64,000 nt of DNA from Macrostomum lignano (lineage: Eukaryota). The stretch is taken from contig NIVC01000059.1 of the NCBI GenBank assembly GCA_002269645.1, forward strand, positions 1 to 64,000, given 5' to 3'. This document shows, one piece after another, positions 1 through 24,934 of this stretch. The stretch's first letter is position 1. Every line of letters starts with the position of its first letter. The notes under the pieces are model-generated. The model was given only the letters and a program-made list of their open reading frames with translations. It was not told where the DNA came from and made no database searches. The position numbers were made by a program, and so were the translations under genes.

Positions 1-474
1 ATTGACACAGAGTTTGTTAGACAAGTTCACACACGCGTGTGCAGAGGACTGCTCCCGAATGCAGGATCGTATAGAATTAAGCACGCCAAGCCAGCAGGCG
101 CGAGTATGTATTACAGTGCCCCAGAAAATATTGAACGGCAGCTGGTAAAATTAACTAGAGACATAAAAGAGCCACAAATCTTGCGTGATGCAGTAGTGAC
201 AGGAGCATATTTCCTAGAAAAGTTTCTCACCATACACCCCTTTAGCGACGGCAATGGTAGAACTGCTAGGTTGTTATTATCAAAGTTGATCAACCGGATT
301 CTGCCAGAACCCGTATCATTTGCGTATGCAAATAGAGACACATATCTCAACTGTCTTTACGAAGCGCGCAGCAGCAACCGGGGGCTCCTAGCGGCGTATT
401 TACTTTTATCAATTGAGAGAACCGTTCTACAGTGGAGGGAATGGTTGGAAATCTGTTCAGACGGCAGCCTATAA
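1..474 (+). CDS. Fic/Doc-domain protein (AMPylase), 5' end outside the window
   Basis: Frame is open from base 1 (IDTEFVRQVHTRVCRGLLPNAGSYR). Canonical Fic motif HPFSDGNGRTAR; stop TAA at 472-474. Confidence 0.9.
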   Translation: MDTEFVRQVHTRVCRGLLPNAGSYRIKHAKPAGASMYYSAPENIERQLVKLTRDIKEPQILRDAVVTGAYFLEKFLTIHPFSDGNGRTARLLLSKLINRILPEPVSFAYANRDTYLNCLYEARSSNRGLLAAYLLLSIERTVLQWREWLEICSDGSL

Positions 475-479
475 ATAAA
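470..479 (+). promoter_or_regulatory. TATAAATAAA: TATA box plus polyA signal at the Fic stop
   Basis: Overlaps the Fic stop codon; 39 nt before ATG 509. Confidence 0.6.
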
Positions 480-508
480 TAAAATTGGTATTTCTCAACA
501 ATATCGAA

Positions 509-861
509 ATGTACTGGCAATCGGAAATAGTGTACACCCACGTTGACAACGCAGTGCTGGAAGTGGGATATTGGGACCCAAACAAGCCGCGTTTCCGCAT
601 CCACTGTCAAAACTGTAGCTGTCCAGGAGCCGTGTTTAGTCGAGCACAATGGCATCGAATGAAATTTCTGGCACTAGCTGCACAGATTACGATCTCGGAG
701 GCGGCGCATCTATCAAAGTTATCGACGGGAAGCGCCTGTACGTAAAAGGAGACTGCGAATTTCACCTGTCAGACAAAATACTTTGTGCAGTTGAAAAGAA
801 TAGAGTCGACAATTTCTTCCACTATTTCTTTCTCGACGAATCTGACGAGTCAGAGGAATGA
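509..861 (+). CDS. PC4-like ssDNA-binding/coactivator protein, split by a 1-nt frameshift near 662-667
   Basis: ATG 509 lies 39 nt after a TATA motif. PGAVFSRAQWHRMK resembles the PC4 KGISL..EQW..LK motif. The -1 frame continues YDLGGGASIKVIDGKRLYV and ends in an acidic tail. Confidence 0.5.
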
Positions 862-1358
862 GCTGGATTTCTCGAGACTACCCGCTTTTATCGAGCAAAG
901 AAAGGGCAGAGTACGAGACCCTGAAAAAGTCCACAGACTGGTTATGCATTTGTCACGGCAAACCAATTCCCGAACGATTAGTCACCTTTAATGTCGAGGT
1001 AGACGAAATTGGGCAAGGGCCTTACAGCACCCAAGAATATACAGATGCCCGAATTGACTACTACTTTAGAGACAAGATGCATTTCAAAGCCAATCTTCAA
1101 AGAATGGAGCAGATAATTGCCCCAATATTACAAGAGGATCATCGTGAGAAAATACGGTACCGGAATCACCAGCCGATTGCTCCCTCGTGGACGGAACACC
1201 AAAGGATTTGGCGACCTAAACACAGTAGACCAGTGCTAGCGAAGTTGACTATCAACCCTCACTGCAGCTGCATTACGACACGCCTCAAACCCTCGACCAG
1301 AAGATCGAAACAAAAGGTTTATTTTTTCCGGATTTCCAACACCGGAAAGTGTCGTTAA
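858..1358 (+). CDS. Hypothetical Polinton protein (166 aa)
   Basis: ATG overlaps the upstream stop (ATGA). Fills the gap between element genes; no family recognised. Confidence 0.6.
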   Translation: MSWISRDYPLLSSKERAEYETLKKSTDWLCICHGKPIPERLVTFNVEVDEIGQGPYSTQEYTDARIDYYFRDKMHFKANLQRMEQIIAPILQEDHREKIRYRNHQPIAPSWTEHQRIWRPKHSRPVLAKLTINPHCSCITTRLKPSTRRSKQKVYFFRISNTGKCR

Positions 1359-1408
1359 AGAAGGACTATAACAAAAACGCCCAGCCACCCCACCCTCCGC
1401 GCCAAGGG

Positions 1409-1416
1409 TATATAAG
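1409..1416 (+). promoter_or_regulatory. TATA box (TATATAAG) of the SSB-like gene
   Basis: GC-flanked; 51 nt before ATG 1460. Confidence 0.65.
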
Positions 1417-1459
1417 GAGGCGCTCAGGAGCGAGACCCACTCTCAGCAGCAGCAGCAAC

Positions 1460-2140
1460 ATGGATACCGTTCAAGACTACAATAGTGTTAGGATCGACCT
1501 ATTCTCTCTCAAGTCGAGAGGTCCAAGCTACAACGGAACCGAGACGTACGACATTGAGTACGACGAACAGGGCCCTCTCTATCTTGCCAATGCGACGCCC
1601 GTACTGATTGTCAAGGGTGTGAGAACCGACAATGAAGGCCGCGAATTCATCATTCTTTCCCAAAAGCACTTGGAGAGCTGCATACCAGAAGCGTTCAATT
1701 CCGTGTGTCACCAGCTCTCTATCCAAGGAATGGCGCTATTGGGGTACAACCCCACTTTTGGCTGCGACAGCGCTGCATTCGGATTGGCTCACGACTTTAA
1801 AATGTACGACAAGAGCGGCAAGTTGTGCACCGACTACAAGAACAAGACGGGCTACTATAGAGTACTGTTCGCCCTAGACACGGCGGTGATTCACGACTCG
1901 GTTCTAACCGCGGTGCCGAAAATTCAACAACTGCAATTCATAGAAGCTCCCAAGCAGGCGTTTGACCGCTGCTACTGGATTCCACCGTTAAAAATCAAGG
2001 TAGGACGCAAGCGCGGAGCTGGTGGAGCTGAGCGGAAACAAAAGCAACCGAAAAAACCGCTTGCAGAACGTCGTGTGCGTAAACAGGGTGTTTTGCGCAA
2101 GGTGGAACCACCTACCGAACTTGGACTGGGCGCGCGCTAG
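1460..2140 (+). CDS. Putative OB-fold ssDNA-binding protein with basic NLS-like tail
   Basis: Strong-context ATG (caacATGg) 51 nt after TATATAAG. C-terminal VPKIQQLQFIE strand resembles viral gp2.5-type SSBs; followed by GRKRGAGGAERKQKQPKK. The family call is by eye. Confidence 0.55.
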   Translation: MDTVQDYNSVRIDLFSLKSRGPSYNGTETYDIEYDEQGPLYLANATPVLIVKGVRTDNEGREFIILSQKHLESCIPEAFNSVCHQLSIQGMALLGYNPTFGCDSAAFGLAHDFKMYDKSGKLCTDYKNKTGYYRVLFALDTAVIHDSVLTAVPKIQQLQFIEAPKQAFDRCYWIPPLKIKVGRKRGAGGAERKQKQPKKPLAERRVRKQGVLRKVEPPTELGLGAR

Positions 2141-2540
2141 AACGTTTCATAGACCCCGGGCATTGTACAACCTGAGGATCGGAAAGTGTACAATAAACTT
2201 TTTCAAACGTTCATTATCTGCCATTGTTTTTGGTTGCCAATCAACCAACGATGTGCTGCGTCTTTTTGCTCAATGTAAACCAAACTCTGTTGTTATCACT
2301 ACCGGTACTTATCGTGCAGAAGTTAATGTTAAGCCAAACTTTTTCCGCCTTGCCAACTCGAGCTCGCGCTGGGTTGAGTGGGAGAGTGAGGTATTCAATG
2401 GGCTTGTAATAAAGTCCCCATTCCGCAAGGCCAAGTGCCTGCTGTGCGGAAAGAATGGTCGGTTAGTGTTCCTAGGAATACGAAACTATGACGAACTGTG
2501 TAAAATGTACGACCACGTGACTGCTATTCTGCAACTCTAA
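2022..2540 (+). CDS. Divergent TATA-binding protein (TBP)-like protein, no in-frame AUG
   Basis: Two TBP-like repeats: RLQNVVCVN (cf. QLQNIVST), EWESEVFNGLVIK (cf. SYEPELFPGLIYR), GRLVFLGIRNYDEL (cf. GKVVLTGAKVRAEI). The frame is open from 2004 with only CTG/GTG starts. Confidence 0.7.
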   Translation: MELSGNKSNRKNRLQNVVCVNRVFCARWNHLPNLDWARARTFHRPRALYNLRIGKCTINFFKRSLSAIVFGCQSTNDVLRLFAQCKPNSVVITTGTYRAEVNVKPNFFRLANSSSRWVEWESEVFNGLVIKSPFRKAKCLLCGKNGRLVFLGIRNYDELCKMYDHVTAILQL

Positions 2541-2552
2541 TTATGCTTTGCT

Positions 2553-2562
2553 TATAAATAAA
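2553..2562 (+). promoter_or_regulatory. TATAAATAAA: TATA box plus polyA signal
   Basis: 13 nt after the TBP-like stop; 53 nt before ATG 2606. Confidence 0.6.
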
Positions 2563-2605
2563 CAAAATATGCACATGTATGCACGCAATGCTTACCACCT
2601 TAATA

Positions 2606-2968
2606 ATGACAAACGGAATTTCTCGTCTTTGTTCTTGCCGTCGCGAGCTAGAGGAGCTCGGTGACGCGCGACCACATCGAAGGAGGGCCATTATTAGGGG
2701 AGCCGATAATGAGTTGATGCAGTGTCTGTGCGAGTTAAGCCACAATGTACTCAAGGGCAATATCGATCTATCCCCTAGACAGTTTGCAAGGTTGAAACGT
2801 TATAGAGAAGCCCTGCATGACATGGCCGACAAAAAACTGTCTATAAATAGGAAGAAGAATATGATACTATCGGACCCTCAAGTTGGAGGATTCCTACCAA
2901 TTCTCGCCAAGATTGCTGCACCGTTAATCACTGGACTGTTTGGTGGTCTGCTAGGACAACGACGTTGA
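2606..2968 (+). CDS. Polinton/adintovirus core protein with adenovirus pX-like C-terminus
   Basis: LCELSHNVLKGNIDLS...QVGGFLPILAKIAAPLITGLFGG. The GG/FLP plus hydrophobic tail resembles adenovirus pX. In-frame ATGs at 2579, 2588 and 2606. Confidence 0.75.
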   Translation: MTNGISRLCSCRRELEELGDARPHRRRAIIRGADNELMQCLCELSHNVLKGNIDLSPRQFARLKRYREALHDMADKKLSINRKKNMILSDPQVGGFLPILAKIAAPLITGLFGGLLGQRR

Positions 2969-2970
2969 AA

Positions 2971-3534
2971 ATGGACAAGTACGTTGTGGTCCCCGAGGAG
3001 GAATTCAATCAGCTTAGACAGGGTACTCCGCGAGAAATTGCCCCAAAATCGGAGTACGAAAAACTTGTAGAGTACAATGCAAAGCTACAGACCCAATTGG
3101 CTAAAGTAAAACCCCAAAAGACGACAAAGCAGCTATTTTCTGATAGGCAACAACGTATATGGAATATACTAACAGAAAAGCACCCCAGCCTAAATTACAA
3201 CCAATCGTGGGAAGTCGTTTTTGATGGTGAAACTTGGGGTGGCAGCAACGTTTTTGATCTTCTACAAGCCGTCACCACCAACACTAATAATCACCCGAAA
3301 TATTCAACCGCTTTCTGGGCTCTGCTAGACAAGGCCCGTATACCAATGTCTATGCTCGGTCGGAAACAGCTCCCTGTGGAGGAAAAGAAGGTTGACCATA
3401 TGGTTGGTACCGACGATTACCGCGATGAATATGAGCACACAATTGCGACAGACACCCGCGATTTAACGACCACGCGCAACAAAGGTGTAAATGCTATGCC
3501 CAAACTTGTCGATCGAAGGTACCGGGGTGGGTAA
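2971..3534 (+). CDS. Conserved Polinton protein of unknown function upstream of the integrase
   Basis: GGSNVFDLL...FWALLDKARIPMSMLG pattern, typical of the Maverick gene in this position. A possible +1-frame C-terminus (GVGKYHDYQLRPPEKKKKYVTLYK) runs to 3598. Confidence 0.7.
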   Translation: MDKYVVVPEEEFNQLRQGTPREIAPKSEYEKLVEYNAKLQTQLAKVKPQKTTKQLFSDRQQRIWNILTEKHPSLNYNQSWEVVFDGETWGGSNVFDLLQAVTTNTNNHPKYSTAFWALLDKARIPMSMLGRKQLPVEEKKVDHMVGTDDYRDEYEHTIATDTRDLTTTRNKGVNAMPKLVDRRYRGG

Positions 3535-3589
3535 ATATCACGATTACCAACTAAGACCACCCGAGAAAAAGAAAAAATACGTGACTCTT

Positions 3590-3597
3590 TATAAATA
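3590..3597 (+). promoter_or_regulatory. TATA box upstream of the integrase region
   Basis: TATAAATA 45 nt before ATG 3635. Confidence 0.55.
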
Positions 3598-3710
3598 GAA
3601 CCCTAGTCCAAACATAACCGCGCGCCCGGCGGTCATGGGCGCAGCAGCAGCCGCGTCAAAGCTTTGTGTAGACAACTCCCCAGCCGACATTACGTGCAAC
3701 TATTCATGCT

Positions 3711-4810
3711 GTGCATCCACACTTGTTGTCAATGAGGGCTCTAACCGCTCTTCGTCGAGTTTACGAACAAGGAGCCGCCGCTTTTTCAAATGCTGCCCGT
3801 GTCTATCAGGAGGCCAAACGTCTGGCGCCAAACCTGACAAGACGCCAAACCAGGGAATGGCTAGAAACCCAACCGAGTTACACCCGTCACCGGAGAGTCA
3901 ACAGGACATTTAAAACGGGAAAAGTAATGTCGGGAGGATTCATGGAAACTCTACAAGCCGATTTGATGGACATGTCGCGATACAAACGTTGGAATGACGG
4001 ACATAAATATATACTAGTTATTATTGATGTGCTTAGTAAGCAGGCTTTTTGTAGGGCAATTAAACTAAAGAGTGATACCCCCGCAGCGTTTGAGTCAATG
4101 TTGGCGAATGATTTCCCTGCCCGCCCCCTTTACCTTCACGTGGATCGGGGTACCGAGTTTTATAATCAGCGAATGCGCCGCATACTAAAAGACAATAATG
4201 TTAAAATGTACAGCACCAACTCTGTGTACAAGGCAAACATGGCCGAGAGGCTGATTAGAACTCTTCGAAAGCGTCTGGCTCGCTACTTTGAGCACAACAA
4301 CACGTGGCGTTGGGTTGACTACTTACCTAATTTGATAGGCAATTACAACAACACGACGCATTCTACTATTGAGATGAAACCGTCAAGTGTAGGGTTCCAC
4401 AATCAGAAGCGTGTGTGGGAAAAGCTCTACCCGGATCAGCAAAAAGACGACCCGTATATAAAAAGGGGGATTTTGTGAGAATTTCGAAATCTCGCAGGGC
4501 ATTCGACAAGGAGGCATACGACATGTATAGTGAGGAGGTGTACATTATATCCAAAGTTTGCCCTGGACCCCCACATTTTTATCGTATTTCTGATTTGTCT
4601 GGTGAAGTGATTGAGGGACGGTTTTACTACAATGAACTGTCCAAATCTACCCGACCCGAGCGTTTTGTAATCAATAAAGTTTTGCGTAGAAACGTGTTAA
4701 TAAATGGTGTTGCGCACCATTACGTTAGCTGGCGCGGTTATCCCGACACTTTTAATTCATTTGTACCTGTAAATGAAGTTATAAATATACGTCAACGTAA
4801 TAATAACTAA
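3711..4810 (+). CDS. Retroviral-like (rve, DDE) integrase with C-terminal chromodomain; 1-nt frameshift at A5 run 4441-4445
   Basis: QADL / HVDRGTEF / AERLIRTL catalytic triad. The second frame gives KKGDFVRISK and the chromodomain YVSWRGYPDTFNSF. Adding one A joins them as DQQKRRPVYKKGD. Confidence 0.93.
4780..4787 (+). promoter_or_regulatory. TATA box of the minor capsid gene (inside the integrase 3' end)
   Basis: TATAAATA 43 nt before ATG 4823. Confidence 0.55.
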
Positions 4811-4822
4811 TGCGTGGCTACC

Positions 4823-5953
4823 ATGCATCTCTTTCTGCCTAGCAATGCGTGCCCCGAGCACTATCCCGAAAATAATCCGGCTCATTATTTTATTAATTTA
4901 CCGGACACTCTCCACTTTCCGAATCATGAGGTTTGCCTCGAACGGATCTACTTTACCAAAGAATTTGAATCTTTCAAAAAATCTATACCGATCACCATTC
5001 GCGAACAGGAGGGCCTCTTGACGGCTTCGTCGTTTGCAAGCCTTTGTCTCGCAGCGGGTCTGAAAACCCCTGAAGAATGTATTTCCGGCTTTCTAAACGG
5101 TATCCGATACGTTGAAGGGGATAATAAGAAAATTGTCTTTTTAAGAACATCCCCAACCGCCTTTATGATTGTGAATACTTCAAAATCCACCGTCGGCATC
5201 AAATTCCCGGATGCCCTACCCAAGGTGTTTAAACTAGTCGCCGGCTTCGAGTCTAATGAGGATCTACCTACTGAACTCGTATTACACGCGGGGTGTGCAG
5301 CCTCCATCACCGCAGTTGTTGAGGAACCGACTGTACAGTCAATGGACCACGCTCCAATAATAAGACAAGTTACTAGCGCAGCGTCTGATCAAATCTATTT
5401 TATGCAGGGTGGATACTATAGTACACCTAAAAGATTGGTGGAGGAACTCAACGATTTAATTTGGAAACGGATCAAAGATCTCATAGCGGCTCCAGCACCT
5501 AGAAAGGACTTTTTCGGATACAGCGAAGTTACGAATAGGTGTTATTACATCGGCTCGGTGGATTACATGTTTGGGTTGGGGCGCTTGACCAGCGTGCTTG
5601 GTTTCCCAGAGCATGATTATACAACCCCATTTTTCGGTATATCGGATTTCTACGCAAACGCATCAATGGAATTAACCGGTGGAATACAAACAATGTACAT
5701 CTATTCGAGCATAGTCGATTCTGTTATTGTAGGAGACGTTAAAGTTCCTCTGTTGGGAGCTATACCGATGGATCCCAAAGTTCAGGGCGGTCGCGAGTAC
5801 TACGAGTTTGTCAATCCGGCATATCTACCGCTGGTTAAGCACCCATTCAAAACTATTGAAGTACAAATTAACGATGATATGGGCAGGGATATGACAAAAG
5901 TAATGAGGGGCAAGACCGTCTTGAGCGTTAACATCCGCGAAAAGAAGCTATAA
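4823..5953 (+). CDS. Minor capsid protein (penton, single jelly-roll)
   Basis: N-terminal LFLPSN..YPEN.P..Y...LP and C-terminal MYIYSSIVDSVIVGDVKVPLL...Y.P...F.TIEV.I.D..G motifs of Polinton minor capsid proteins; ATG in accATG context. Confidence 0.9.
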   Translation: MHLFLPSNACPEHYPENNPAHYFINLPDTLHFPNHEVCLERIYFTKEFESFKKSIPITIREQEGLLTASSFASLCLAAGLKTPEECISGFLNGIRYVEGDNKKIVFLRTSPTAFMIVNTSKSTVGIKFPDALPKVFKLVAGFESNEDLPTELVLHAGCAASITAVVEEPTVQSMDHAPIIRQVTSAASDQIYFMQGGYYSTPKRLVEELNDLIWKRIKDLIAAPAPRKDFFGYSEVTNRCYYIGSVDYMFGLGRLTSVLGFPEHDYTTPFFGISDFYANASMELTGGIQTMYIYSSIVDSVIVGDVKVPLLGAIPMDPKVQGGREYYEFVNPAYLPLVKHPFKTIEVQINDDMGRDMTKVMRGKTVLSVNIREKKL

Positions 5954-5958
5954 ATAAA
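5949..5958 (+). promoter_or_regulatory. TATAAATAAA at the minor capsid stop
   Basis: Overlaps TAA 5951-5953; 48 nt before ATG 5997. Confidence 0.6.
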
Positions 5959-5996
5959 CAGCACAGCCTCAGTAAACTATATCCTAGTGCTTAATC

Positions 5997-6341
5997 ATGC
6001 CTTCTATTCTGATTGGTGGAGCTTTGCCTGTTTTCGCGGGCGCCCAGAGGGGCAACGGTTTGTTTGGAAGCATTGCCCGCTTCGCGCTGCCAATTCTAAA
6101 GAGTTTTGGTAAAAACGTTCTCCGTCATGGTACTAGAGCCCTAGCAACTACTGTTAACGATAGCCTCGAGCAAGGAGGCAATTTGAAGGAGTCTGTCCTG
6201 CGCAATTCTGTTCAGGCTGCCAAGGACGCCTTTAAAGACACGGTTACCCAAAGGGGTAGCGGACGAAGAAGAAAAAAGGCTCCGAAGCGTCTCAATTCAG
6301 ACATTTTCAGCACTATAAATAAAAAGCCCCGCTTCAATTAG
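5997..6341 (+). CDS. Small basic Polinton virion protein with QxGxG motifs and amphipathic helix
   Basis: QRGNGLFGSIARFALPILKSFGK...QRGSGRRRKK; lies between the minor and major capsid genes. Confidence 0.8.
   Translation: MPSILIGGALPVFAGAQRGNGLFGSIARFALPILKSFGKNVLRHGTRALATTVNDSLEQGGNLKESVLRNSVQAAKDAFKDTVTQRGSGRRRKKAPKRLNSDIFSTINKKPRFN
6314..6323 (+). promoter_or_regulatory. TATAAATAAA upstream of the MCP
   Basis: 57 nt before ATG 6371. Confidence 0.6.
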
Positions 6342-6370
6342 ATTCGCCGAATCGAGTCTGTCTACTAAAC

Positions 6371-7654
6371 ATGTCCGAGTGTCTGTGTACAAAGTCCGAG
6401 TTTGAGCTCTTTGCCCCTCGAGCCCACCAGATTGCCGCTGTAGGTTCAACTACTGAAGAAATCCACCCGGTTGCCAGCGTCGAAAATGCGAGTGTGGTTG
6501 AGTTTAGAATTGTGGGCGGCGAGACGTTTGTCGATCTTAATGACATTGATCTCGAGATTAAAGGTTGTATTAAAAGAGCTAATGGAGCCGATTTGGCGGC
6601 GGATTCAAACGTGGCGCCAATCAATTACCTCTTGGAGACCATGTTCAAAAACGTGTCTCTTTCCATAAATGGTACACATATCGAGTCTAGCAACAACAAC
6701 CACGCCTACAAGGCGTACATTCGTACATGCTTGAGTTATGGGTCTGATTCAAAGTCTAACCAACTGCGGATGATGGGCTACGCTAAAGACGCTGGGGGTC
6801 AAATGGCTGCGGTTGGAAATCCTGGCTTTGTAACTCGCAAGGCGATGGCTGCCGGTTCTCGAACATTTCACCTGTATGGCCCTCTTAGTCTCGACTTTTT
6901 TGTCACCAACGATCGTATGCTGCTACCCTACACTGATATGGTGGTTACGCTCACTCTGCAAAATTCGGGATTCGTTGTAGAGAATCACGCCGAAGGGGTT
7001 GATGCAAAGTTGGTTCTTCAAAGTGCAAAATTACACGTTCGTCGGGTAAAGGCTAACCCCCAACTGGCCTTGGAGATTGAAGAACAGCTGGCGACTCAGA
7101 ATGCAGTCTACCCCATCGAGCGCCTCGTTGTACACAACACCTCTGTCGCTGTAGGAGTTCGCGACGTGTCAATCAATAATATTTTCCCGGAGCAGAAGCC
7201 TAAACTTGTCATTATGGGGATGGTAAATAGTGCCGCATATAACGGGGTGGCTACCCATAATCCGTTCAATTTCGAGCCATTTGGGGCTGACAGTGTGGCC
7301 CTGTACAAGGACGGTGTCAGTCTGTGCGGTCAACCATTCACTCCAAGGTTCGCTGCCCAAAACTATGCTCGCGAATACGCCATGCTGTTTAAGAGCCTAG
7401 GGAAAATGAATCGCGATTTGGACATTGACCTGTCATATTCGGATTATCGCGCCGGTTACTGCTTATTTGCGTGGAATCTAATGCCCGATATGGAACTGGG
7501 TGGACATAGCATGCCTCGCGAGAGAGGGAATCTGACCCTACAGATAAAGTTTTCTGCAGCCCTACCTGCCGGGATTAACGTTTTGGTGTTTGGTTACTTT
7601 GACAACGCGGTGCAAATCACTAGAGGCCGCCAGCCCATTCTGGACTACGTATGA
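6371..7654 (+). CDS. Major capsid protein (double jelly-roll)
   Basis: Intact 427-aa ORF with CTKSEFELF, VEFRI, FVDL, F.NV.L.ING, AYKAYI..LSY, NPFNFE and GNL.L.IKF motifs typical of the Polinton MCP. Confidence 0.93.
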   Translation: MSECLCTKSEFELFAPRAHQIAAVGSTTEEIHPVASVENASVVEFRIVGGETFVDLNDIDLEIKGCIKRANGADLAADSNVAPINYLLETMFKNVSLSINGTHIESSNNNHAYKAYIRTCLSYGSDSKSNQLRMMGYAKDAGGQMAAVGNPGFVTRKAMAAGSRTFHLYGPLSLDFFVTNDRMLLPYTDMVVTLTLQNSGFVVENHAEGVDAKLVLQSAKLHVRRVKANPQLALEIEEQLATQNAVYPIERLVVHNTSVAVGVRDVSINNIFPEQKPKLVIMGMVNSAAYNGVATHNPFNFEPFGADSVALYKDGVSLCGQPFTPRFAAQNYAREYAMLFKSLGKMNRDLDIDLSYSDYRAGYCLFAWNLMPDMELGGHSMPRERGNLTLQIKFSAALPAGINVLVFGYFDNAVQITRGRQPILDYV

Positions 7655-8087
7655 ACACGTTGGAAATTTTGGAGTGTTTAAAACTACCTGTGGAAGTGCA
7701 CGTTTGCCCTCTCGACAGAATTCCTGCACCTGTTTACCCTGCTGCATATGTAATTAATTTTGACACGGGTAATCTGCCAGGCACCCACTGGGGACTGATT
7801 TGCCTACACGATGATAAGAGTGTGACATTTTTTGACCCTCTGTGTATTGAACCCGTGCCGGAATTGCTCTCGGCTTGGATCTCGAAGCATGTACATTCAC
7901 CTGTTGCTATGAATCGCCACCCTGTTCAACACCCTCTAAGTGTAGCGTGTGGGCCGCATGTGATTTTTGTGGCCGAAAAGCACTTTTTAGAGGGTTGTCG
8001 ATTGAAAAGATTTTAAGGGAATGTTACTCTACCAATCTGCTTGAAAATGATTTGATGGTTCGAAAACATGTTCTACAAATAAAATAG
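7651..8087 (+). CDS. Adenain-like cysteine maturation protease; 1-nt frameshift at T5 run 7984-7988
   Basis: GTHW (His), FFDP (Asp), Q..SVACG (Gln/Cys). The -1 frame supplies the C-terminus FRGLSIEKIL...NLLENDLMV. The ATG overlaps the MCP stop (ATGA). Confidence 0.9.
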
Positions 8088-8121
8088 TTTTTAATATTTG
8101 GAGTGTCAACTCGCCCTGAAA

Positions 8122-8751
8122 ATGTACCAAACAATTGATCCTGACGCTCTAAAGTTTGCTCCAAATACTTCGGCGATTTTTGCTGGTGTTAACCAGAGCG
8201 GAAAAACAACTCTTGTTAAAGAATTGCTGCGAAACGAGTTTTTTCAGGACCCTAAGCCTGTTCGCGTTGATTGGTTTGGGCACTATCCAGACCCGGAACT
8301 GTTTGAATTACCGTACCCTGTCAATTTTCGCTCGTCTACATTTAACCCTGAAACCTATGTTCCCGCTCCGAATATTCTACTCGTTGTCGATGATCAAATG
8401 CAAGCCATGGAAAAAAACGCTGCTTTTACCGCATTTTTCACTCGCAAAGTCAGCCATGTGGGATTCCGGCTTTGGTACCTTGTACAAAACCTGTTTGCCA
8501 AGGGCAAGGAGCACCGCACTCAATCCCTTAACGCAAACTACCTTGTATTGTTCCGCAATGTACGGGACGTTAGTACAGTCGCCCATATTGCAAAGCAGCT
8601 TGTCCCCGCTAACCCAAAAAGTTTTGTTCAAATGTACGAAGACGCCACTAGGGAGCCCTACTCCTACTTGATTGTTAATTGCTTGCAGAACGCATCTGTT
8701 CGCTACTATGCTAATGTGTTGGGGCGCTACCCCGTAGTTTATGCTAAATAA
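8122..8751 (+). CDS. DNA-packaging ATPase (FtsK-HerA/A32-like)
   Basis: Walker A GVNQSGKT, Walker B LLVVDD, then QNLF...RTQSLNANYLVLFRNVRD; AATAAA at 8747-8752. Confidence 0.93.
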   Translation: MYQTIDPDALKFAPNTSAIFAGVNQSGKTTLVKELLRNEFFQDPKPVRVDWFGHYPDPELFELPYPVNFRSSTFNPETYVPAPNILLVVDDQMQAMEKNAAFTAFFTRKVSHVGFRLWYLVQNLFAKGKEHRTQSLNANYLVLFRNVRDVSTVAHIAKQLVPANPKSFVQMYEDATREPYSYLIVNCLQNASVRYYANVLGRYPVVYAK

Positions 8752-8839
8752 AACACTGTTGGAGAGCTTTGCTCTGTTTGCCGGATGGCCTGAACCTGAA
8801 ACAACTAAAATACGTGTTTTTTCTTTTCAAGTCCTCTAC

Positions 8840-9503
8840 TGCCCTGGGGGGAGCTCTCTATCACTCACCCCCGGTCTGTCCCGCGCCTCCAGACTGGGCC
8901 GCTCTCTCCGCGGGGGGTGTGATTCATACTCCCTCTCTGTCCACGCCGCGTGCTGCGACATGCCAGGGCAGCGCAGGGTGCCTCCACGCACTCTCTGTCC
9001 CAGCACCCCGTGTCTCTTTGTACCCCACCTCATACTGCTACAGGGGTCGCCTGTTATCTGTCCCCTGCTACAGGGGGATGGCGGCTCTCCACGCACTACC
9101 CCTCCTGCTACAGGGGCTGCTCTCTGTCCCCAGCTACAGGGCTGCTCTCTGTCCCCCGCATGGGGGGCCGGTTGCTCAGTGTACAGGGCTGCGTCAGCAT
9201 CGGGGGTTTCCTTCCTACACTAACCGCGTGCACACGACATTGGTGGGAGGGGCGGGAATCCCCCCGCCGGATGTACACCCCGAGGGAGGCCCATGCGCTG
9301 AAGGTACACTCGCTGGACGCCCAGCCGGCCGGATGTACACTCGCGGGAGGCCCACCCCGCTGGAGGTACACTCGCTGGACACCCACCCCGCTGGAGGTAC
9401 ACCCCGGGGGAGGTGGTACACCCCGAGGGAGCACCTTGCCGCGGTGCTAGAGGCCGACATCAGCCCGACGGACCTTCGCAAAATCGAGCCATTCGGAATC
9501 CCT
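8840..9503. repeat. GC-rich terminal region (candidate TIR) with CTCTGTCC sub-repeats and a 31-bp-periodic GTACAC array
   Basis: GTACAC at 9273, 9304, 9335, 9366, 9397 and 9416; stem GGCGGG/CCCGCC at 9251-9268. The partner TIR is not in the window. Confidence 0.55.
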
Positions 9504-10417
9504 TAGTAGTAGCACTTACAGCAGATAAGCGCTGCTTTTGAAGATTAGCGTAGCCCCAGCAAAAGCATAAGTATACAAAATAAAATGTTAAAAATTTGCA
9601 TGAATCCCCATAGGAAACAATGATTATTGTCACAAAGATAAATTCGCTACTTCAATGTAGACTCGAACTGCCGACCTTCTACTAAAAGACTTATACTATT
9701 TTAGAAGTTTAGTAACTTCACACTTTGAAGTTAACCCCTCCCCCCAGAAATCGGCAGTTATCCCCACAACAACCTGAAATTAGCTATCACTTCTAATCCC
9801 GCAAACAGACTGCAGTCATACTCTTAGCAGCCTGCAGGTACGAGTATCCACCTTGCTGTCTACAACTTTCATTAGCATCGGCAAACTACAATAATTCACT
9901 CAGCAGTCCGCAGTTACTCGTATCCCCTCAACAACTTGCTCTGCTATACACTCATAAGTCTGGAGGAATACCTCAGCAGTTTTTTTTCAATTTTTCCCAT
10001 TGCAGTCTGCATGAATGAGTCATCTCAGCAATGATTCTTTCAGTAATCTGATAATTTGCTCAGTATTTAGTACAGCTCACTAATCAATTTGGCGATCCAT
10101 ATCGGAAGTCTTTTGCGCAGCTCAGCATTTAGCAGTACCTTCAGCTGTTTAGCTATTTAGCAGCATCGTCTGCAATTCGGGAGCAGTAATACACAAGCAG
10201 TTTTTTTACAAATCAAATTTTAAAATGCACTGGCTGAAATCAAATCAAATTCAAATTGACAAAATCAATTTGTTTAGCAGCTTGTGCTGAATAGCAAAAA
10301 TATTGTGCTGAATAGCAAATATAATTCATTGAGTGTGGCTTACTAATTAATAAAAAATGATTCAATTAGTTGAGGCGCTAGGTATAAATGAACTAATTTA
10401 TTTAATTTTAATTATCG

Positions 10418-10492: not shown

Positions 10493-12619
10493 TACTGATT
10501 GGAGAGCGCAAAAATCAGCCATTTATGCTTTGACATTGCGGTCAAATACACAGCAGTGATAGGCTGCTCAGTGTGCACAGGTTTGGTGCCGGCAGAGCCA
10601 TTCAGCCAAGGTCAGAAGAATGTACACACGCAGCCACTGAGCATTATTATTATTTCAATACTTTTAAAATGCACTGGCTGATTTCGCTCTCCCTCCAGAG
10701 TGCCTGCGCAATGCTTGGCACACTGCCTCCACCTAAAAAGCTCAGAGTCAGTTTATAGCGAGAATATGCAGTACACAGTTGTGGCGCAATCAAAATTAGA
10801 TTTGGAATTCAGCCAGTCAAGAATTCAACCTTGCTTGGCCTTCTATTAAAAGCATTAGAAAAACTCGTTTTTCGAATATTTAATACCTTTAGCATTAAAG
10901 CCAATTAAAGAAATTTTAACTGTCTTCTTTCCAGATAATTACAATCTTTTGGCAAAAACGCGATTAAAATTGGTCAATCGGTTCGATCTCTAGAGCGCTA
11001 CACGAATACTAACACAAATTCTCTTCGAGTGAACGTCACACGAAGCAGCTATGACATAATTAAATACGCAGGCAGTCAGTATCAGTCTAAATTAAAGTTT
11101 GCTATATGGTTACGCAATTTCTGCCTTTCAACTTAGCACAGTGTTTTCAAATTGTTGTGATGCAATCTTTATCAGAATCAGAATTCAGCCAGCCAGTTTT
11201 TTCTCTAGCATTCGTATAGTGCACTTCAAGTCGAAAGAGCTGCTTGACCTTTGCAAAAAACATGTTTTTCGAATATTTAATCCCTTTAGCATTGAAGCAG
11301 ATACAAGAAATTTTAACCATACAATCCTGGGCTGATTACAAATCTTTTGGCGAAGACGCGATCAAAATCGGTGAAGAATTGCAGTCTCTAGAGCGTTATG
11401 GACATTCAAGCATACAAACCTTAGAGATTTAGTATATTTAGATTGGAGAGCGCAAAAATCAGCCATTTATGCTTTGACATTGCGGTCAAATACACAGCAG
11501 TGATAGGCTGCTCAGTGTGCACAGGTTTGGTGCCGGCAGAGCCATTCAGCCAAGGTCAGAAGAATGTACACACGCAGCCACTGAGCATTATTATTATTTC
11601 AATACTTTTAAAATGCACTGGCTGATTTCGCTCTCCCTCCAGAGTGCCTGCGCAATGCTTGGCACACTGCCTCCGGCCTAAAAAGCTCAGAGTCAGTTTA
11701 TAGCGAGAATATGCAGTACACAGTTGTGGCGCAATCAAAATTAGATTTGGAATTCAGCCAGTCAAGAATTCAACCTTGCTTGGCCTTCTATTAAAAGCAT
11801 TAGAAAAACTCGTTTTTCGAATATTTAATACCTTTAGCATTAAAGCCAATTAAAGAAATTTTAACTGTCTTCTTTCCAGATAATTACAATCTTTTGGCAA
11901 AAACGCGATTAAAATTGGTCAATCGGTTCGATCTCTAGAGCGCTACACGAATACTAACACAAATTCTCTTCGAGTGAACGTCACACGAAGCAGCTATGAC
12001 ATAATTAAATACGCAGGCAGTCAGTATCAGTCTAAATTAAAGTTTGCTATATGGTTACGCAATTTCTGCCTTTCAACTTAGCACAGTGTTTTCAAATTGT
12101 TGTGATGCAATCTTTATCAGAATCAGAATTCAGCCAGCCAGTTTTTTCTCTAGCATTCGTATAGTGCACTTCAAGTCGAAAGAGCTGCTTGACCTTTGCA
12201 AAAAACATGTTTTTCGAATATTTAATCCCTTTAGCATTGAAGCAGATACAAGAAATTTTAACCATACAATCCTGGGCTGATTACAAATCTTTTGGCGAAG
12301 ACGCGATCAAAATCGGTGAAGAATTGCAGTCTCTAGAGCGTTATGGACATTCAAGCATACAAACCTTAGAGATTTAGTATATTTAGAAGAAGACTAGCAA
12401 TCTACGCCCCCCGTTGGGGAGCCAAAGAAATGCAATACACGTTTTTTTTAATAAGCTACATATATATCCTTGAAATCTTAAAAAATCTCCTGTCAAACCT
12501 TGTAAGCCTTGACATGTCAATAATTCCCCCCCACAAGCTTTAACATATCAACTTCCCCCCTTGACATCTCAGCAATGCCCCCAATAAGCCTTGGAAATCT
12601 AAAAATATCTGTCAACCTT

Positions 12620-12680
12620 CTAACTCTAACCCTAGCCGAACCCTAACCCTAACCCTAACCCTAACCCTAACCTAACCCTA
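12620..12680. repeat. Interstitial telomere-type tract (TAACCC)n in unit B copy 1
   Basis: About 6 near-perfect TAACCC units plus degenerate flanks. Confidence 0.8.
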
Positions 12681-13489
12681 AAGCATTGAAATTTCAGTAA
12701 TTCTCTCTAAGAGTCATAATAGCACTACTACAGCATTATAGCGATTCCCTGCAAGCCTCGACATCGTAGGGATTCCCAAATGAATATCTTAACTTCGACA
12801 TGAAGCTTCTTTTATTTTTTACATTACGTTTTTTTATCAGCGATCCCTCCCCTGAGGAGGCATCAAATAATGTAATAAAAAGTTTTCAATAAACTACATG
12901 TAGCTTCTGACTTTAGCCTTGAAATCTCATTTATACCCCCGTGAGCCTTGACATCTCAGCTATTCCCCCCGTAAGCCTTAACATGTCAGCGATGGCCCCC
13001 ATAAACCTTGAAATCTAAAAAATCCCCTGTTATTCTGTTAACCTTGAAACCTGATAAAATATAACCCTCAACCCACACCTGACCTAAACCTAACTTTAAC
13101 CCAACCTAAAGCCTTGAAATCTCCGCAATTCTTCTCCCCTAAGCCTTGACATTTTAGTGATTCCTTCTTTAAGAATCAAGCACTATAACGATTTCCACCA
13201 AGCTTTGACATCGTAGCAATTCCCAAATTAATCTTTTAACTTGAACATGACTTTTCTTTTATGTATACGTAGTGCTACTTTTATTTTTTACATGACTCTT
13301 CTTCTATCAGCGCCCCCGTGGCGAGCCAACAAAGAATGCAATAAAAAATGAGTAAAGTACATGAACTTTGAAGTAGCTTCTGACTTTTACTTTGACATCT
13401 CAGAAACCCCCCCCGTAATCTCAGTTATTCTCTGAGAGCCTTTATGTCTCAGTTTTTTCTCCCCAGCACAGCATTATAGCTGCATTTAA

Positions 13490-15230
13490 TTTTTACATGA
13501 CACCCTTCATGTCTGACATGACGCTTCTTTTATTCTACCATGATGCTTCTTAATTTTTTAAATGACACTTTCATTAGTTTTTAAATGAGGCTTCTATGAT
13601 TTTTTCACGACGCTTCTATGATTTTTACATGACACTTCTATGATTTTTTACATGACGCTTCTATGATTTTTTACATGACGCTTCTATGATTGTTTACATG
13701 ACGCTTCTATGATTTTTAAATGACGCTTCTATGATTTTTTACATGACCCTTCTATGATTGTTTACATGACGCTTCTATGATTGTTTACATGACGCTTCTA
13801 TGATTGTTTACATGACGCTTCTATGATTTTAAATGACGCTTCTATGATTTTTTACATGACGCTTCTATGATTGTTTACATGACGCTTCTATAATTTTTAA
13901 ATGACGCTTCTACAATTTTTTACATGACACTTGAATGATTGTTAACATGACGCTTCTATGATTTTTTGCATGACGCTTCTATGATTTTTATATGACGCTT
14001 CTACGATTTTTTACATGGCGCTTCTATGATTGTTTACATGACGCTTCTACGATTGTTTACATGACGCTTCTATGATTGTTTACATGACGCTTTTATGATT
14101 GTTTACATGACGCTTCTACAATTTTTTTACATGACGCTTCTATGATTGTTTACATGACGCTTCTATGATTGTTTACATGACGCTTCTATGATTGTTTACA
14201 TGACGCTTTTATGATTTTTTACATGACGCTTCTATGATTTTTTTACATGACGCTTCTATGATTTTTTACATGACGCTTCTATGATTGTTTACATGACGCT
14301 TTTATGATTGTTTACATGACGCTTCTACAATTTTTTTACATGACGCTTCTATGATTGTTTACATGACGCTTCTATGATTGTTTACATGACGCTTCTATGA
14401 TTGTTTACATGACGCTTTTATGATTTTTTACATGACGCTTCTATGATTTTTTTACATGACGCTTCTATGATTTTTTACATGACGCTTCTATGATTGTTTA
14501 CATGACGCTTTTATGATTGTTTACATGACGCTTCTACAATTTTTTTACATGACGCTTCTATGATTGTTTACATGACGCTTCTATGATTGTTTACATGACG
14601 CTTCTATGATTGTTTACATGACGCTTCTATGATTGTTTACATGACGCTTCTATGATTGTTTACATGACGCTTCTATGATTGTTTACATGACGCTTCTATG
14701 ATTTTTTACATGACACTTCTATGATTGTTTACATGACGCTTCTATGATTGTTTACATGACGCTTTTATGATTTTTTACATGACGCTTCTATGATTTTTTT
14801 ACATGACGCTTCTATGATTTTTTACATGACGCTTCTATAATTGTTTACATGACGCTTCTATGATTGTTTACATGACGCTTCTATGATTGTTTACATGACG
14901 CTTCTATGATTGTTTACATGACGCTTCTATGATTGTTTACATGACGCTTTTATGATTGTTTACATGACGCTTCTATGATTTTTTTACATGACGCTTTTAT
15001 GATTTTTTACATGACGCTTCTATGATTTTCACATGACGCTTCTATGATTTTTTAAATGACGCTTCAATGATTTTTATATGACGCTTCTACGATTCTTTAC
15101 ATGACGCTTCTATGATTGTTTACATGACGCTTCTATGATTTTTTACATGACACTTCTATGATTGTTTACATGACGCTTCTATGATTGTTTACATGACGCT
15201 TCTATGATTTTTACATGACGCTTCTTTTTA
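13490..15230. repeat. ~23-bp satellite (ACATGACGCTTCTATGATTGTTT)n in unit B copy 1
   Basis: Direct reading; T-run length varies. Confidence 0.97.
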
Positions 15231-18200
15231 AAAAGTCTTAGTTTTCCTGACGTTGAAAAGCTTTAATTAAAAAAATTATACTCTATGAAAATTCGAACCA
15301 TCGTCTTTGCATTTAGCAGTTCAGTTTGTTCACCTCTAGGCTAGCTCTCATCGTTTTGATAACATCAAATTTTGCACTTATATAATTCAACACTTTAAAA
15401 TCCAAGCATAGAGTAAATCACACGAAGCAGTTATGACATAATCAATATCCAGTCAGTCAGTATCAGTTAACAATATGGTTACGCAATTTAAATCAAGTCT
15501 GGTGCTACGCTTCCACACTGCATTTTCAATTCAAGTCGGAGTTACAATTCAGTTATGATGCAATCTATTTCAGAATCAGAATTCAACCAGTCAGTTTGTT
15601 CTCTAGCATTCTTACAATGCATTTCAAGTCGAAAAGTTTGCTTGACCTTTGCAAAAAAGCATGTTTTTCGAATATTAAATGCCTTTAGCATCGAGCAATT
15701 TCTTAGCCACGATGCATGTACAGTCACGGGAAAATTTCTGATCGAACAGTGCAAGTTCGAACAAAATCGGTCCAGCCATTTTTTCTCTAATCGATCACAT
15801 AGACACAGACAGACCATTTTTAGTATATAGGATAGAAGAAGACTAGAGCGTTATGGACATTCATTCATTCAAGCATACAAACCTTAGAGATTTAGTATAT
15901 TTAGAAGTCTCTAGAGCGTTATGGACATTCATTCATTCAAGCATACAAACCTTAGAGATTTAGTATATTTAGATTACTAGCTAATTAGAGCTGGCTGCCA
16001 GCATCCAGAATAATTTTTTATTGCCCCCCTTTAAGTGGAGCGGAGTGAGTTTTCTTATCAGTTGGCTCTGGCGCAATCAATTAAAATTGGCAGTGAAGTT
16101 TCTGGCTGATAAAATTTGCATTGAAAAAGGCCATTTAAAACAGTTTTTCGAATATTTAATCCCTTTAGCATTGAATCAGATACAAGAAATTTTAACTGTC
16201 TTCTTTCCAGACAATTTTGAATCTTTTGGCGAAAACGCGATCAAAATCGGTGAAGAATTGCAGTCTCTAGAGCGTTATGGACATTCATTCATTCAAGCAT
16301 ACAAACCTTAGAGATTTAGTATATTTAGAAGATAGAAGATGGACAAGCATTCAAGCATACAAACCTTAGAGATTTAGTATATTTGGATTATGGACAAGCA
16401 TTCAAGCATACAAACCTTAGAGATTTAGTATATTTAGACTAGCTAATTAGAGCTGGCTGCCAGCAGCCAGAATAATTTTTTTATTGCCCCCCTTTATGTG
16501 GAGCGGAGTGAGTTTTCTTATCAGTTGGCTCTGGCGCAATCAATTAAAATTGACTGTGAAGTTTCTGGCTGATAAAATTTGCATTGAAAAAGGCCATTTA
16601 AAACAGTTTTTCGAATATTTAATCCCTTTAGCATTGAAGCAGATACAGGAAATTTTAACTGTCTTCTTTCCAGACAATTTTGAATCTTTTGGCGAAAACA
16701 CGATCAAAATCGGTGAAGAATTGCAATCTCTAGAGCGTTATGGACAAGCAAGCATTCAAGCATACAAAGCTTAGAGATTTAGTATTTTTAACTGTCTTCT
16801 TTCCAGACAATTTTGCATCTTTTGGCGAAAACGCGATCAAAATCGGTGAAGAATTGCTCTCTCTAGAGCGTTATGGACATTCAAACATACAAACCTTAGA
16901 GATTTAGTATATTTAGACTAGCTAATTAGAGCTGGCTGCCAGCAGCCAGAATAATTTTTTTATTGCCCCCCTTTATGTGGAGCGGAGTGAGTTTTCTTAT
17001 CAGTTGGCTCTGGCGCAATCAATTAAAATTGACTGTGAAGTTTCTCGCTGATAAAATTTGCATTGAAAAAGGCCATTTAAAACAGTTTTTCGAATATTTA
17101 ATCCCTTTAGCATTGAAGCAGACACAAGAAATTTTAACCATACAATCCCAGGCTGATTACGAATCTTTTGGCGAAAACGCGATCAAAATCGGTGAAGAAT
17201 TGCAATCTCTAGAGCGTTATGGACAAGCAAGCATTCAAACATACAAACCTTAGAGATTTAGTATATTTAGATAGATTGGAGAGCGCAAAAATCAGCCATT
17301 TATGCTTTGACATTGCGGTCAAATACACAGCAGTGATAGGCTGCTCAGTGTGCACAGGTTTGGTGCCGGCAGAGCCATTCAGCCAAGGTCAGAAGAATGT
17401 ACACACGCAGCCACTGAGCATTATTATTATTTCAATACTTTTAAAATGCACTGGCTGATTTCGCTCTCCCTCCAGAGTGCCTGCGCAATGCTTGGCACAC
17501 TGCCTCCACCTAAAAAGCTCAGAGTCATTTTATAGCGAGAATATGCAGTACACAGTTGTGGCGCAATCAAAATTAGATTTGGAATTCAGCCAGTCAAGAA
17601 TTCAACCTTGCTTGGCCTTCTATTAAAAGCATTAGAAAAACTCGTTTTTCGAATATTTAATACCTTTAGCATTAAAGCCAATTAAAGAAATTTTAACTGT
17701 CTTCTTTCCAGATAATTACAATCTTTTGGCAAAAACGCGATTAAAATTGGTCAATCGGTTCGATCTCTAGAGCGCTACACGAATACTAACACAAATTCTC
17801 TTCGAGTGAACGTCACACGAAGCAGCTATGACATAATTAAATACGCAGGCAGTCAGTATCAGTCTAAATTAAAGTTTGCTATATGGTTACGCAATTTCTG
17901 CCTTTCAACTTAGCACAGTGTTTTCAAATTGTTGTGATGCAATCTTTATCAGAATCAGAATTCAGCCAGCCAGTTTTTTCTCTAGCATTCGTATAGTGCA
18001 CTTCAAGTCGAAAGAGCTGCTTGACCTTTGCAAAAAACATGTTTTTCGAATATTTAATCCCTTTAGCATTGAAGCAGATACAAGAAATTTTAACCATACA
18101 ATCCTGGGCTGATTACAAATCTTTTGGCGAAGACGCGATCAAAATCGGTGAAGAATTGCAGTCTCTAGAGCGTTATGGACATTCAAGCATACAAACCTTA

Positions 18201-18451
18201 GAGATTTAGTATATTTAGAAGAAGACTAGCAATCTACGCCCCCCGTTGGGGAGCCAAAGAAATGCAATACACGTTTTTTTTAATAAGCTACATATATATC
18301 CTTGAAATCTTAAAAAATCTCCTGTCAAACCTTGTAAGCCTTGACATGTCAATAATTCCCCCCCACAAGCTTTAACATATCAACTTCCCCCCTTGACATC
18401 TCAGCAATGCCCCCAATAAGCCTTGGAAATCTAAAAATATCTGTCAACCTT

Positions 18452-18512
18452 CTAACTCTAACCCTAGCCGAACCCTAACCCTAACCCTAACCCTAACCCT
18501 AACCTAACCCTA
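18452..18512. repeat. Interstitial telomere-type tract (TAACCC)n in unit B copy 2
   Basis: Duplicate of 12620-12680 at offset 5832. Confidence 0.8.
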
Positions 18513-19324
18513 AAGCATTGAAATTTCAGTAATTCTCTCTAAGAGTCATAATAGCACTACTACAGCATTATAGCGATTCCCTGCAAGCCTCGACATCGTA
18601 GGGATTCCCAAATGAATATCTTAACTTCGACATGAAGCTTCTTTTATTTTTTACATTACGTTTTTTTATCAGCGATCCCTCCCCTGAGGAGGCATCAAAT
18701 AATGTAATAAAAAGTTTTCAATAAACTACATGTAGCTTCTGACTTTAGCCTTGAAATCTCATTTATACCCCCGTGAGCCTTGACATCTCAGCTATTCCCC
18801 CCGTAAGCCTTAACATGTCAGCGATGGCCCCATAAACCTTGAAATCTAAAAAATCCCCTGTTATTCTGTTAACCTTGAAACCTGATAAAATATAACCCTC
18901 AACCCACACCTGACCTAAACCTAACTTTAACCCAACCTAAAGCCTTGAAATCTCCGCAATTCTTCTCCCCTAAGCCTTGACATTTTAGTGATTCCTTCTT
19001 TAAGAATCAAGCACTATAACGATTTCCACCAAGCTTTGACATCGTAGCAATTCCCAAATTAATCTTTTAACTTGAACATGACTTTTCTTTTATGTATACG
19101 TAGTGCTACTTTTATTTTTTACATGACTCTTCTTCTATCAGCGCCCCCGTGGCGAGCCAACAAAGAATGCAATAAAAAATGAGTAAAGTACATGAACTTT
19201 GAAGTAGCTTCTGACTTTTACTTTGACATCTCAGAAACCCCCCCCGTAATCTCAGTTATTCTCTGAGAGCCTTTATGTCTCAGTTTTTTCTCCCCAGCAC
19301 AGCATTATAGCTGCATTTAATTTT

Positions 19325-24500: not shown

Positions 24501-24934
24501 TTTGCATTGAAAAAGGCCATTTAAAACAGTTTTTCGAATATTTAATCCCTTTAGCATTGAATCAGATACAAGAAATTTTAACTGTCTTCTTTCCAGACAA
24601 TTTTGAATCTTTTGGCGAAAACGCGATCAAAATCGGTGAAGAATTGCAGTCTCTAGAGCGTTATGGACATTCATTCATTCAAGCATACAAACCTTAGAGA
24701 TTTAGTATATTTAGAAGATAGAAGATGGACAAGCATTCAAGCATACAAACCTTAGAGATTTAGTATATTTGGATTATGGACAAGCATTCAAGCATACAAA
24801 CCTTAGAGATTTAGTATATTTGGATTATGGACAAGCATTCAAGCATACAAACCTTAGAGATTTAGTAGTATATTTGGAAGGTTAAAGTTAGCGTCCCAAT
24901 GCAAAAACAAGCGGTCTGTACGTACATGTACGTG

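Follow-up and report, generated by a model that had tools for sequence, protein, structure and literature searches.

The first 64,000 nucleotides of Macrostomum lignano contig NIVC01000059.1 (C59; this whole stretch is the window) open with a virus-like transposon of the Polinton (Maverick) type, here called V1. The important fact about its virion module is that a polymerase is missing. Thirteen co-oriented genes and a right terminal inverted repeat (TIR) lie within positions 1 to 9510, with host repeats beyond; at 10497-24867 this flank holds duplicated units of 944 bp and about 5.8 kb, 23-bp minisatellites, and degenerate CTAACC arrays. The contig, from a 764-Mb genome, begins at base 1, so the left part of V1 was read from sister copies. 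Placement via contig C1485 put base 1 at 1,050 bp inside the element from its left end. C1485 differs from the window by 9 substitutions and 8 indels over 8.4 kb, and because its left end has the same target-site duplication (TSD) and the same end allele as the window, the two are probably one insertion.

The virion module and integrase recognized in the first-pass annotation were borne out, being co-oriented and retaining their catalytic motifs. The integrase gene (3732..4810, plus strand like all genes here) matches Pfam rve, has D-D-E motifs in the region of residues 77/138/173 and a chromo-like C-terminal domain, and is broken near 4470 in the window (one open reading frame [ORF] of 359 amino acids [aa] in 9 of the 27 V1 loci described below). 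It is followed by a putative minor capsid (penton) gene (4823..5953), assigned by its position one gene before the major capsid protein (MCP) gene according to the rule in PMC4028283. Next are a basic core-protein-like ORF (5997..6341), its putative function suggested by a counterpart at the equivalent place in monopartite Polintons, and the MCP gene itself (6371..7654; 427 aa, Maverick PY type), whose product matches Maverick capsids at 28 to 36% and would adopt a double jelly-roll fold. Neither capsid protein had a sequence match in the PDB. The adenain-like cysteine protease (7651..8087) has H-D-Q-C motifs and a weak Peptidase_C48 match (E=0.06); its reading frame is interrupted near window position 8000 and runs for 145 aa in 19 of 27 loci. 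The packaging ATPase (8122..8751) carries Walker A/B motifs, and both it and the protease match Polinton counterparts at 29 to 37%.

Upstream of the integrase lie two conserved Polinton genes, one (2579..2968) matching the gene at the equivalent place in monopartite Polintons at 27 to 37% and the other (2971..3590) weakly matching its Maverick counterpart. The block to their left had been described as Fic, PC4-like, SSB-like, and TBP-like and as lying outside the Polinton core; both descriptions held in part. The 3' part of a Fic-domain protein (1..474; PF02661, E=2.8e-14; best PDB match FICD, E=4e-7) keeps the full HPFxDGNGRxxR motif, and the protein has 259 aa in sister copies. The PC4 identity proposed for a 117-aa ORF (509..861; split near 660 in the window, single in 21 of 27 loci) found no backing, as there was no Pfam match, the structural model was of low confidence with an atlas score of <0.8, and the ORF did not align with the PC4-like protein of the P1 element introduced below. 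A 171-aa ORF (858..1375) is kept in the sister family V2 (62%). The 226-aa ORF with a basic tail (1460..2140) is likely a single-stranded DNA-binding protein (SSB) of the T7 gp2.5/Enc34 type, an assignment moderately supported by comparison of its model (pLDDT 59.5) with known folds (Z 6.8 for ASFV CP312R, 6.6 for T7 gp2.5, and 5.3 for the Enc34 SSB); the ESM Atlas held no usable match to it. The TBP-like open frame (2004..2540) matches PF00352 at E=1.3e-4, just under the cut-off, and PDB TBP at E=0.002; it lacks an ATG in V1 and has one in V2, the two versions being 77% identical. The block is less unusual than had been proposed: ordinary Mavericks of this genome likewise carry TBP-like and PC4-like genes, and TBP-like genes appear in a figure legend of PMC8502044; only Fic and the 117-aa ORF, neither of which V2 has, are restricted to V1. 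Between 470 and 6321 the plus strand has nine TATA-box-like motifs and the minus strand none. Most of the motifs lie at gene junctions, overlapping AATAAA; given the TBP-like gene on board, they may be a late-promoter signature.

The right TIR (8833..9510) is about 680 bp long. Read inward on the minus strand, it consists of the terminal motif 5'-ACTACTA (9504..9510), a hypervariable 18-nt cassette (positions 8-25 from the end; 9486..9503), and a conserved box, GATTTTG (positions 26-32; 9479..9485), that is common to P1 and to the satellites described below. The element thus ends at 9510 and not at 9503, as had been proposed, and is followed by a 6-bp TSD (9511..9516, plus strand), of which the same 6-mer stands beside the left end on C1485. 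The left TIR predicted upstream was indeed seen in sister copies, about 1 kb before the window start.

Copies of V1 and V2 and the missing polymerase

Among the best 40 of 67 candidates scored, the MCP gene was found at 27 loci at 97 to 100% (V1) and at least 13 at about 79% (V2). Of the 26 V1 loci other than the window, 25 lie within 1.7% of it (0.06 to 1.65% substitutions), and one is at 3.0%. Counted by TSD, the 27 loci represent about 19 insertions, several contigs repeating one insertion. These counts support the earlier proposal of a young Polinton-type element and indicate recent mobility. The single-base slips that had been taken for lesions are present, but they are mostly unstable: contigs with an identical TSD are 8 to 72 gap openings apart with mostly few substitutions, and different genes are broken in them. 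It is therefore likely that most frameshifts are long-read assembly errors and not stable lesions; every scored V1 gene is full length in some copies. Each of 20 sequencing runs, from 8 studies of one organism, contains 0.61-0.90 of the window's sequence words. One V1 copy (L005-L006; C150:79600-81089) continues into a duplicated ATPase-TIR region and closes in a P1/satellite-type terminus.

The first-pass annotation had expected a protein-primed DNA polymerase (pPolB) gene upstream, as in a normal Polinton cut by the window. No pPolB lies between the TIRs in any of the 15 two-ended V1 insertions with matching TSDs, 13 of which measure 10.35-10.74 kb from TIR to TIR and are accounted for along their whole length, the other two carrying unrelated inserts of 3.4-3.5 kb. 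Likewise, seven polymerase queries gave no match in 27 V1 and 14 V2 regions, and no V1 ORF corresponds to an alternative replicase (helicase, primase, or PolA), the largest nonstructural ORFs being 117-259 aa. The V1 ends are 5'-ACTACTA...TAGTAGT-3' with 6-bp TSDs and depart from the 5'-AG(T) Polinton motif. V2 (8.3-10.9 kb; about 73% nucleotide identity to V1) also lacks pPolB, as well as Fic, and has ACTACGTA ends; nine two-ended V2 insertions have matching TSDs. An 18.4-kb element with V1-type TIRs on contig C56 was considered as an autonomous parent and rejected, being noncoding.

The V1 gene order (small conserved genes, integrase, penton, core, MCP, protease) is identical to that of the monopartite elements L209, L233, and L264. 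In ATPase and integrase trees (the latter run in quick mode only), V1 and V2 form a long branch beside the C593 and C1704 Maverick families of this genome, with weak or long-branch support. We found no relative in viral_contigs and no bipartite form outside this genome, the 80 metagenome loci examined all being distant (28-41%). Closer matches, to three MCPs (P0001-3; 80-81%) and to SSB-like proteins (P0063-5; 42-60%), stand on short or context-free records. The 10.9-kb metagenome contigs L264, L265, and L268, considered as V-type segments, were rejected because they encode a 1345-aa pPolB.

Polymerase-bearing partners and shared termini

A search pattern for V1-type ends gave 302 matches in the genome against 17 for a control; the first 100 matches were listed and 75 insertions classed, and several end pairs enclosed pPolB matches. 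The element so delimited, P1, occurs at at least 40 loci at 94-100% (best 40 of 92 candidates scored), and the 26 regions fetched include 22 two-ended insertions of 8.5-9.7 kb with matching 6-bp TSDs and TIRs of about 0.9-1.3 kb. In addition to pPolB it encodes a PC4-like protein, which matches a Maverick gene at 31% and has a weak Pfam match (E=0.19); the long forms have an acidic ORF as well. The P1 pPolB retains exonuclease and polymerase motifs, and its nearest named proteins are Macrostomum lignano UniRef entries at 94-98%. Besides, the gene is split by introns, with six GT..AG joints on copy L107 in sequencing reads: 4121-4191, 4759-4988, 7538-7609, and 7902-7972 in each of runs X9, X11, and X18 (three studies), 3320-4077 in two runs, and 6904-6990 in one. 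A minus-strand joint was also seen in X9, X11, and X18. These three runs were taken as RNA by guess; X3, whose kind is not on record, shows none of the L107 joints.

A sister of P1, P2 (about 65% nucleotide identity), has ACTACGTA ends like V2 (120 matches to this end type against 1 for the control), with six two-ended insertions and matching TSDs. Queries with 26 virion, integrase, and accessory proteins found no integrase, capsid, ATPase, or protease in 43 P regions, the only matches being two to the PC4-like protein. The match lists of V and P overlap on C1485 only, where about 40 kb lie between the two elements and each has its own TIRs and TSDs. Across V1 and P1 together the core Polinton genes are all present, and V1/P1 and V2/P2 form two parallel pairs with complementary gene content. 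A P1 copy beside capsid genes on contig C4072 was considered as a monopartite form and rejected; this copy (L187-L189; C4072:14540-22994) sits, with its own TSD, inside the MCP gene of a family with AGTAGT ends.

The two pairs are also distinguished by their termini. All V1 (24/24), P1 (20/20), and satellite (13/13) ends are of the ACTACTA type (system 1), whereas all V2 (17/17) and P2 (13/13) ends are of the ACTACGT type (system 2); for these counts one foreign end outside the TSD pair of T251 was dropped beforehand, and one P1 end variant that fell outside the pattern is included in the count of two-ended insertions. In system 1, positions 1-7 are fixed and 26-32 nearly so, whereas positions 8-25 differ by 46% between V1 ends, compared with 1.6% at positions 26-45 and 1.1% in the body. 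Even among V1 copy pairs <0.3% apart, 15 of 19 differ at 3-14 of the 18 cassette positions, and cassette distance correlates weakly with body distance (rho 0.16, p 0.04). The alleles are modular and recombined, with 43 distinct system-1 cassettes and 2, 25, and 21 four-gamete quartets between three blocks.

At the DNA level V1 and P1 match only in the outer 32 bp, and their TIR bodies differ. Nevertheless, they share three exact 25-mers (column-shuffle null mean 0.001; reached in 0/2000 shuffles); two ends within P1 windows may belong to neighboring satellites, and the three matches are unaffected by this. V2 and P2 share one exact 25-mer in the fetched set, a number reached in 11/2000 shuffles, while their nearest-allele distance was reached in 0/2000. 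No 25-mer was common to the fetched ends of the two systems, and nearest alleles lie 2.2-2.4 apart when compared within one system but 10-12 apart when compared across the two. Left and right ends of the same insertion carry matching alleles in 10 of 15 V1, 10 of 11 P1, 7 of 9 V2, 5 of 6 P2, and 9 of 11 satellite copies. The monopartite Mavericks of this genome, which end in AGTAGT, served as a control: their 89 ends, counted by eye and not deduplicated, have the same layout of 7 positions, 18 positions, and a box, but hold nine alleles, one of them in 48 ends. The spacer is therefore general, and its heavy shuffling is distinctive of V and P. A few AGTAGT alleles are mosaic, and one such element (C393) has unlike ends.

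System-1 ends also delimit noncoding satellites of 6.7-9.4 kb (L111-L119) with internal inverted arms of 3-4 kb, built partly from pieces of the P1 and V1 TIRs, like defective-interfering genomes. Elsewhere they flank retrotransposon or noncoding cargo of 10-21 kb (L120, C558:43471-53355; L073-L076, C467 and C544; L068-L069, C56), and from this cargo the ends alone appear to suffice for mobilization.

A candidate split Polinton and the alternatives

Because V1 lacks a polymerase, P1 lacks integrase and capsid genes, and the two have common ends, we consider it probable that they form a bipartite Polinton, with V1 as the half that bears capsid and integrase; the P1 pPolB would copy both elements, the V1 integrase would insert both, and the V1 capsid module would package both. 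P elements have TSDs and no integrase of their own, so an integrase is needed in trans. Taken alone, V1 does not qualify as a Polinton; taken with P1, it does, as a split one. Two features that characterize bipartite viruses were found here, namely, complementary essential genes on unlinked elements and matching termini. A third, dependence of replication on both segments together with encapsidation of both, is predicted from sequence, as are complementation, free linear DNA, and particle formation.

Replication of such a pair can be pictured as follows. The P polymerase would protein-prime in trans at the repeated ACT ends of both linear DNAs, by priming of the jump-back type discussed for Mavericks in PMC8097293, and V1 would supply SSB to aid replication, as well as integrase and capsid. 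During co-replication in one nucleus, the outer 25-32 bp would swap between molecules by template switching or by cross-annealing at the two short conserved boxes, AT at positions 19-20 and GATTTTG at 26-32. That alleles are shared although homology spans just 32 bp points to transfer of short primed products or displaced strands from one template to another. Copying between both TIRs of one molecule (panhandle copying) would follow, as the agreeing ends within a copy suggest. Copies with discordant ends would be recombinants caught at integration, and the noncoding satellites would be parasites of the V1/P1 pair.

Several observations weigh against a strict pair. The genome holds many autonomous AGTAGT Mavericks, potential suppliers of pPolB or integrase, and these have an 8-25 spacer too. 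In a small sample, the P1/P2 polymerase clade differs from the polymerases that accompany V-like capsids (FastTree, partial natural ORFs, 450 columns; deep nodes unreliable), a difference that speaks against one genome having simply split in two. The P polymerases match relatives outside the host at 26-36% and gave no BLASTP match to four Maverick polymerases of this genome. With V1 and V2 on an isolated long branch, a merger would be as plausible an origin as fission. Furthermore, a V2 and a P1 copy (L058/L108) are identical at TIR positions 26-50 despite having outer cassettes drawn from different pools, so the pairing of V with P may be less than strict. Given the sample of ends described above, there may also be a rare ACTAC-ended element that is monopartite. 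A second capsid-coding family (C593, C424, C4072; L187-L195) has a mostly deleted polymerase, which indicates that one-way helper dependence arises in this genome too. It is 14.9 kb long with AGTAGT ends, gave 28 ATPase rows at 39%, and has, in 3 of 3 copies read, only an N-terminal pPolB piece of 293-301 aa, which matches the beginning of the complete C1704 polymerase at 41%. This piece is possibly a stand-alone terminal protein, and the family possibly a second, independent helper-dependent capsid element.

Much of this would be expected if V and P were independent nonautonomous parasites in a loose helper network, V borrowing any Maverick polymerase and P, like a linear plasmid, any Maverick integrase. 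The autonomous Mavericks, the polymerase-deleted AGTAGT family, and a P polymerase unrelated to the partners of V-like capsids all fit such a network, as do an inner TIR box common across systems and the unequal copy numbers of V and P. However, sharing of an end motif and an allele pool is confined to V1 with P1 and to V2 with P2, no AGTAGT family taking part, and gene contents are exactly complementary in both pairs, which makes us regard the network as unlikely. Less likely still is that V1 is a cut-and-paste transposon with no need of a viral polymerase, its integrase acting as a transposase as in Ginger and its common ends arising by gene conversion. TIRs, 6-bp TSDs, and an rve integrase are known to suffice in principle, but the same allele stands at both ends of most V1 and P1 copies while insertions differ at about half of the positions, and such concordance calls for end-to-end copying before integration. 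Besides, 32 bp is generally too short for ordinary ectopic conversion, V retains SSB and a repeat end of the jump-back type, and the P polymerase is conserved and spliced. That the split is an assembly artifact, a normal 18-20 kb Polinton collapsed in two, is the least credible explanation and largely refuted: the assembly does have many single-base indels and duplicate contigs, and the TSDs flanking locus C5162 on either side do not agree, but the 15 V1 and 22 P1 insertions each have two TIRs, matching TSDs, and different flanks, the V1 and P1 TIR bodies differ, and V2/P2 repeats the pattern.

Returning to the split Polinton, we give about even chances to a fuller statement: that it is bipartite, endogenous in a flatworm, and active, exists as two diverged pairs, and is the first segmented double-jelly-roll double-stranded DNA (dsDNA) virus, its segments and satellites kept compatible by a hypervariable 25-bp end cap swapped during protein-primed replication, with a merger of a polymerase-less Polinton and an intron-bearing linear pPolB element as its possible origin.

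Relation to known systems and implications

V1 resembles Polintons/Mavericks (adintoviruses) in its rve integrase, PY-type MCP, penton-position gene, adenain-like protease, and packaging ATPase, as well as in its TIRs of several hundred base pairs, 6-bp TSDs, and trinucleotide-repeat ends. Polintons are, however, 15-20 kb long (PMC4028283), whereas V1 is 10.5 kb without pPolB; they end in (AGT)2, (AG)3, or (AC)3A (PMC8097293), compared with 5'-(ACT)2A or ACTACGTA here; and intact vertebrate Mavericks are intronless (PMC8097293), whereas the polymerase here is intron split and on a separate P element. P1 and P2 resemble the capsid-less Polintons (9 of 72 in PMC4028283) in having pPolB and TIRs without MCP, protease, and ATPase, but they also lack an integrase and yet have 6-bp TSDs and a matching capsid partner. 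Among viruses, the Bidnaviridae (Bombyx mori bidensovirus) are bipartite, with a Polinton-derived pPolB on one segment and matching termini, the latter serving as the criterion for second segments (PMC8502044); they differ from V1, an integrated dsDNA element with rve and a Maverick-type capsid, in having single-stranded DNA, a parvovirus-like capsid, and no integrase. Polinton-like viruses and Tlr1 also carry a module of double-jelly-roll type without pPolB (PMC11161782). Their genomes encode a replication protein of another kind, which V1 lacks, and mostly have no rve, which V1 has. The yeast linear killer plasmids pGKL1 and pGKL2 are likewise paired protein-primed linear DNAs, one dependent on the other, but they are cytoplasmic, each has its own pPolB, and they have no capsid and do not integrate. 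Polydnaviruses are endogenous, and in their segmented dsDNA the virion genes are likewise separate from other segments, but they are domesticated, of nudivirus or other origin, with circular, host-replicated segments that are not self-mobile. We know of no segmented double-jelly-roll virus. The literature searched, including PMC6431247, PMC12220804, 10.1101/2023.08.22.554363, and 10.64898/2026.10.13.758929, yielded no description of a Polinton that is bipartite or segmented, no Polinton from Macrostomum, and no hypervariable terminal cassette; subscription papers or Repbase reports may describe these families.

Polintons are defined by a polymerase and an integrase on one molecule, and surveys demanding both would miss the V/P system; in PMC8502044, for example, protease-bearing contigs were screened for PolB. 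A split Polinton would be a living intermediate for the origin of segmented genomes, such as those of bidnaviruses, from Polintons, and would also inform the pairing of linear pPolB plasmids with capsid modules. The hypervariable end cassette would act as a natural barcode, each insertion recording its source replicating pool, by which trans-replication and template switching become measurable. The copies are young, the polymerase RNA is spliced, and the host is likely a laboratory model, so that replication of Polintons as free linear DNA and their formation of virions would be open to observation.

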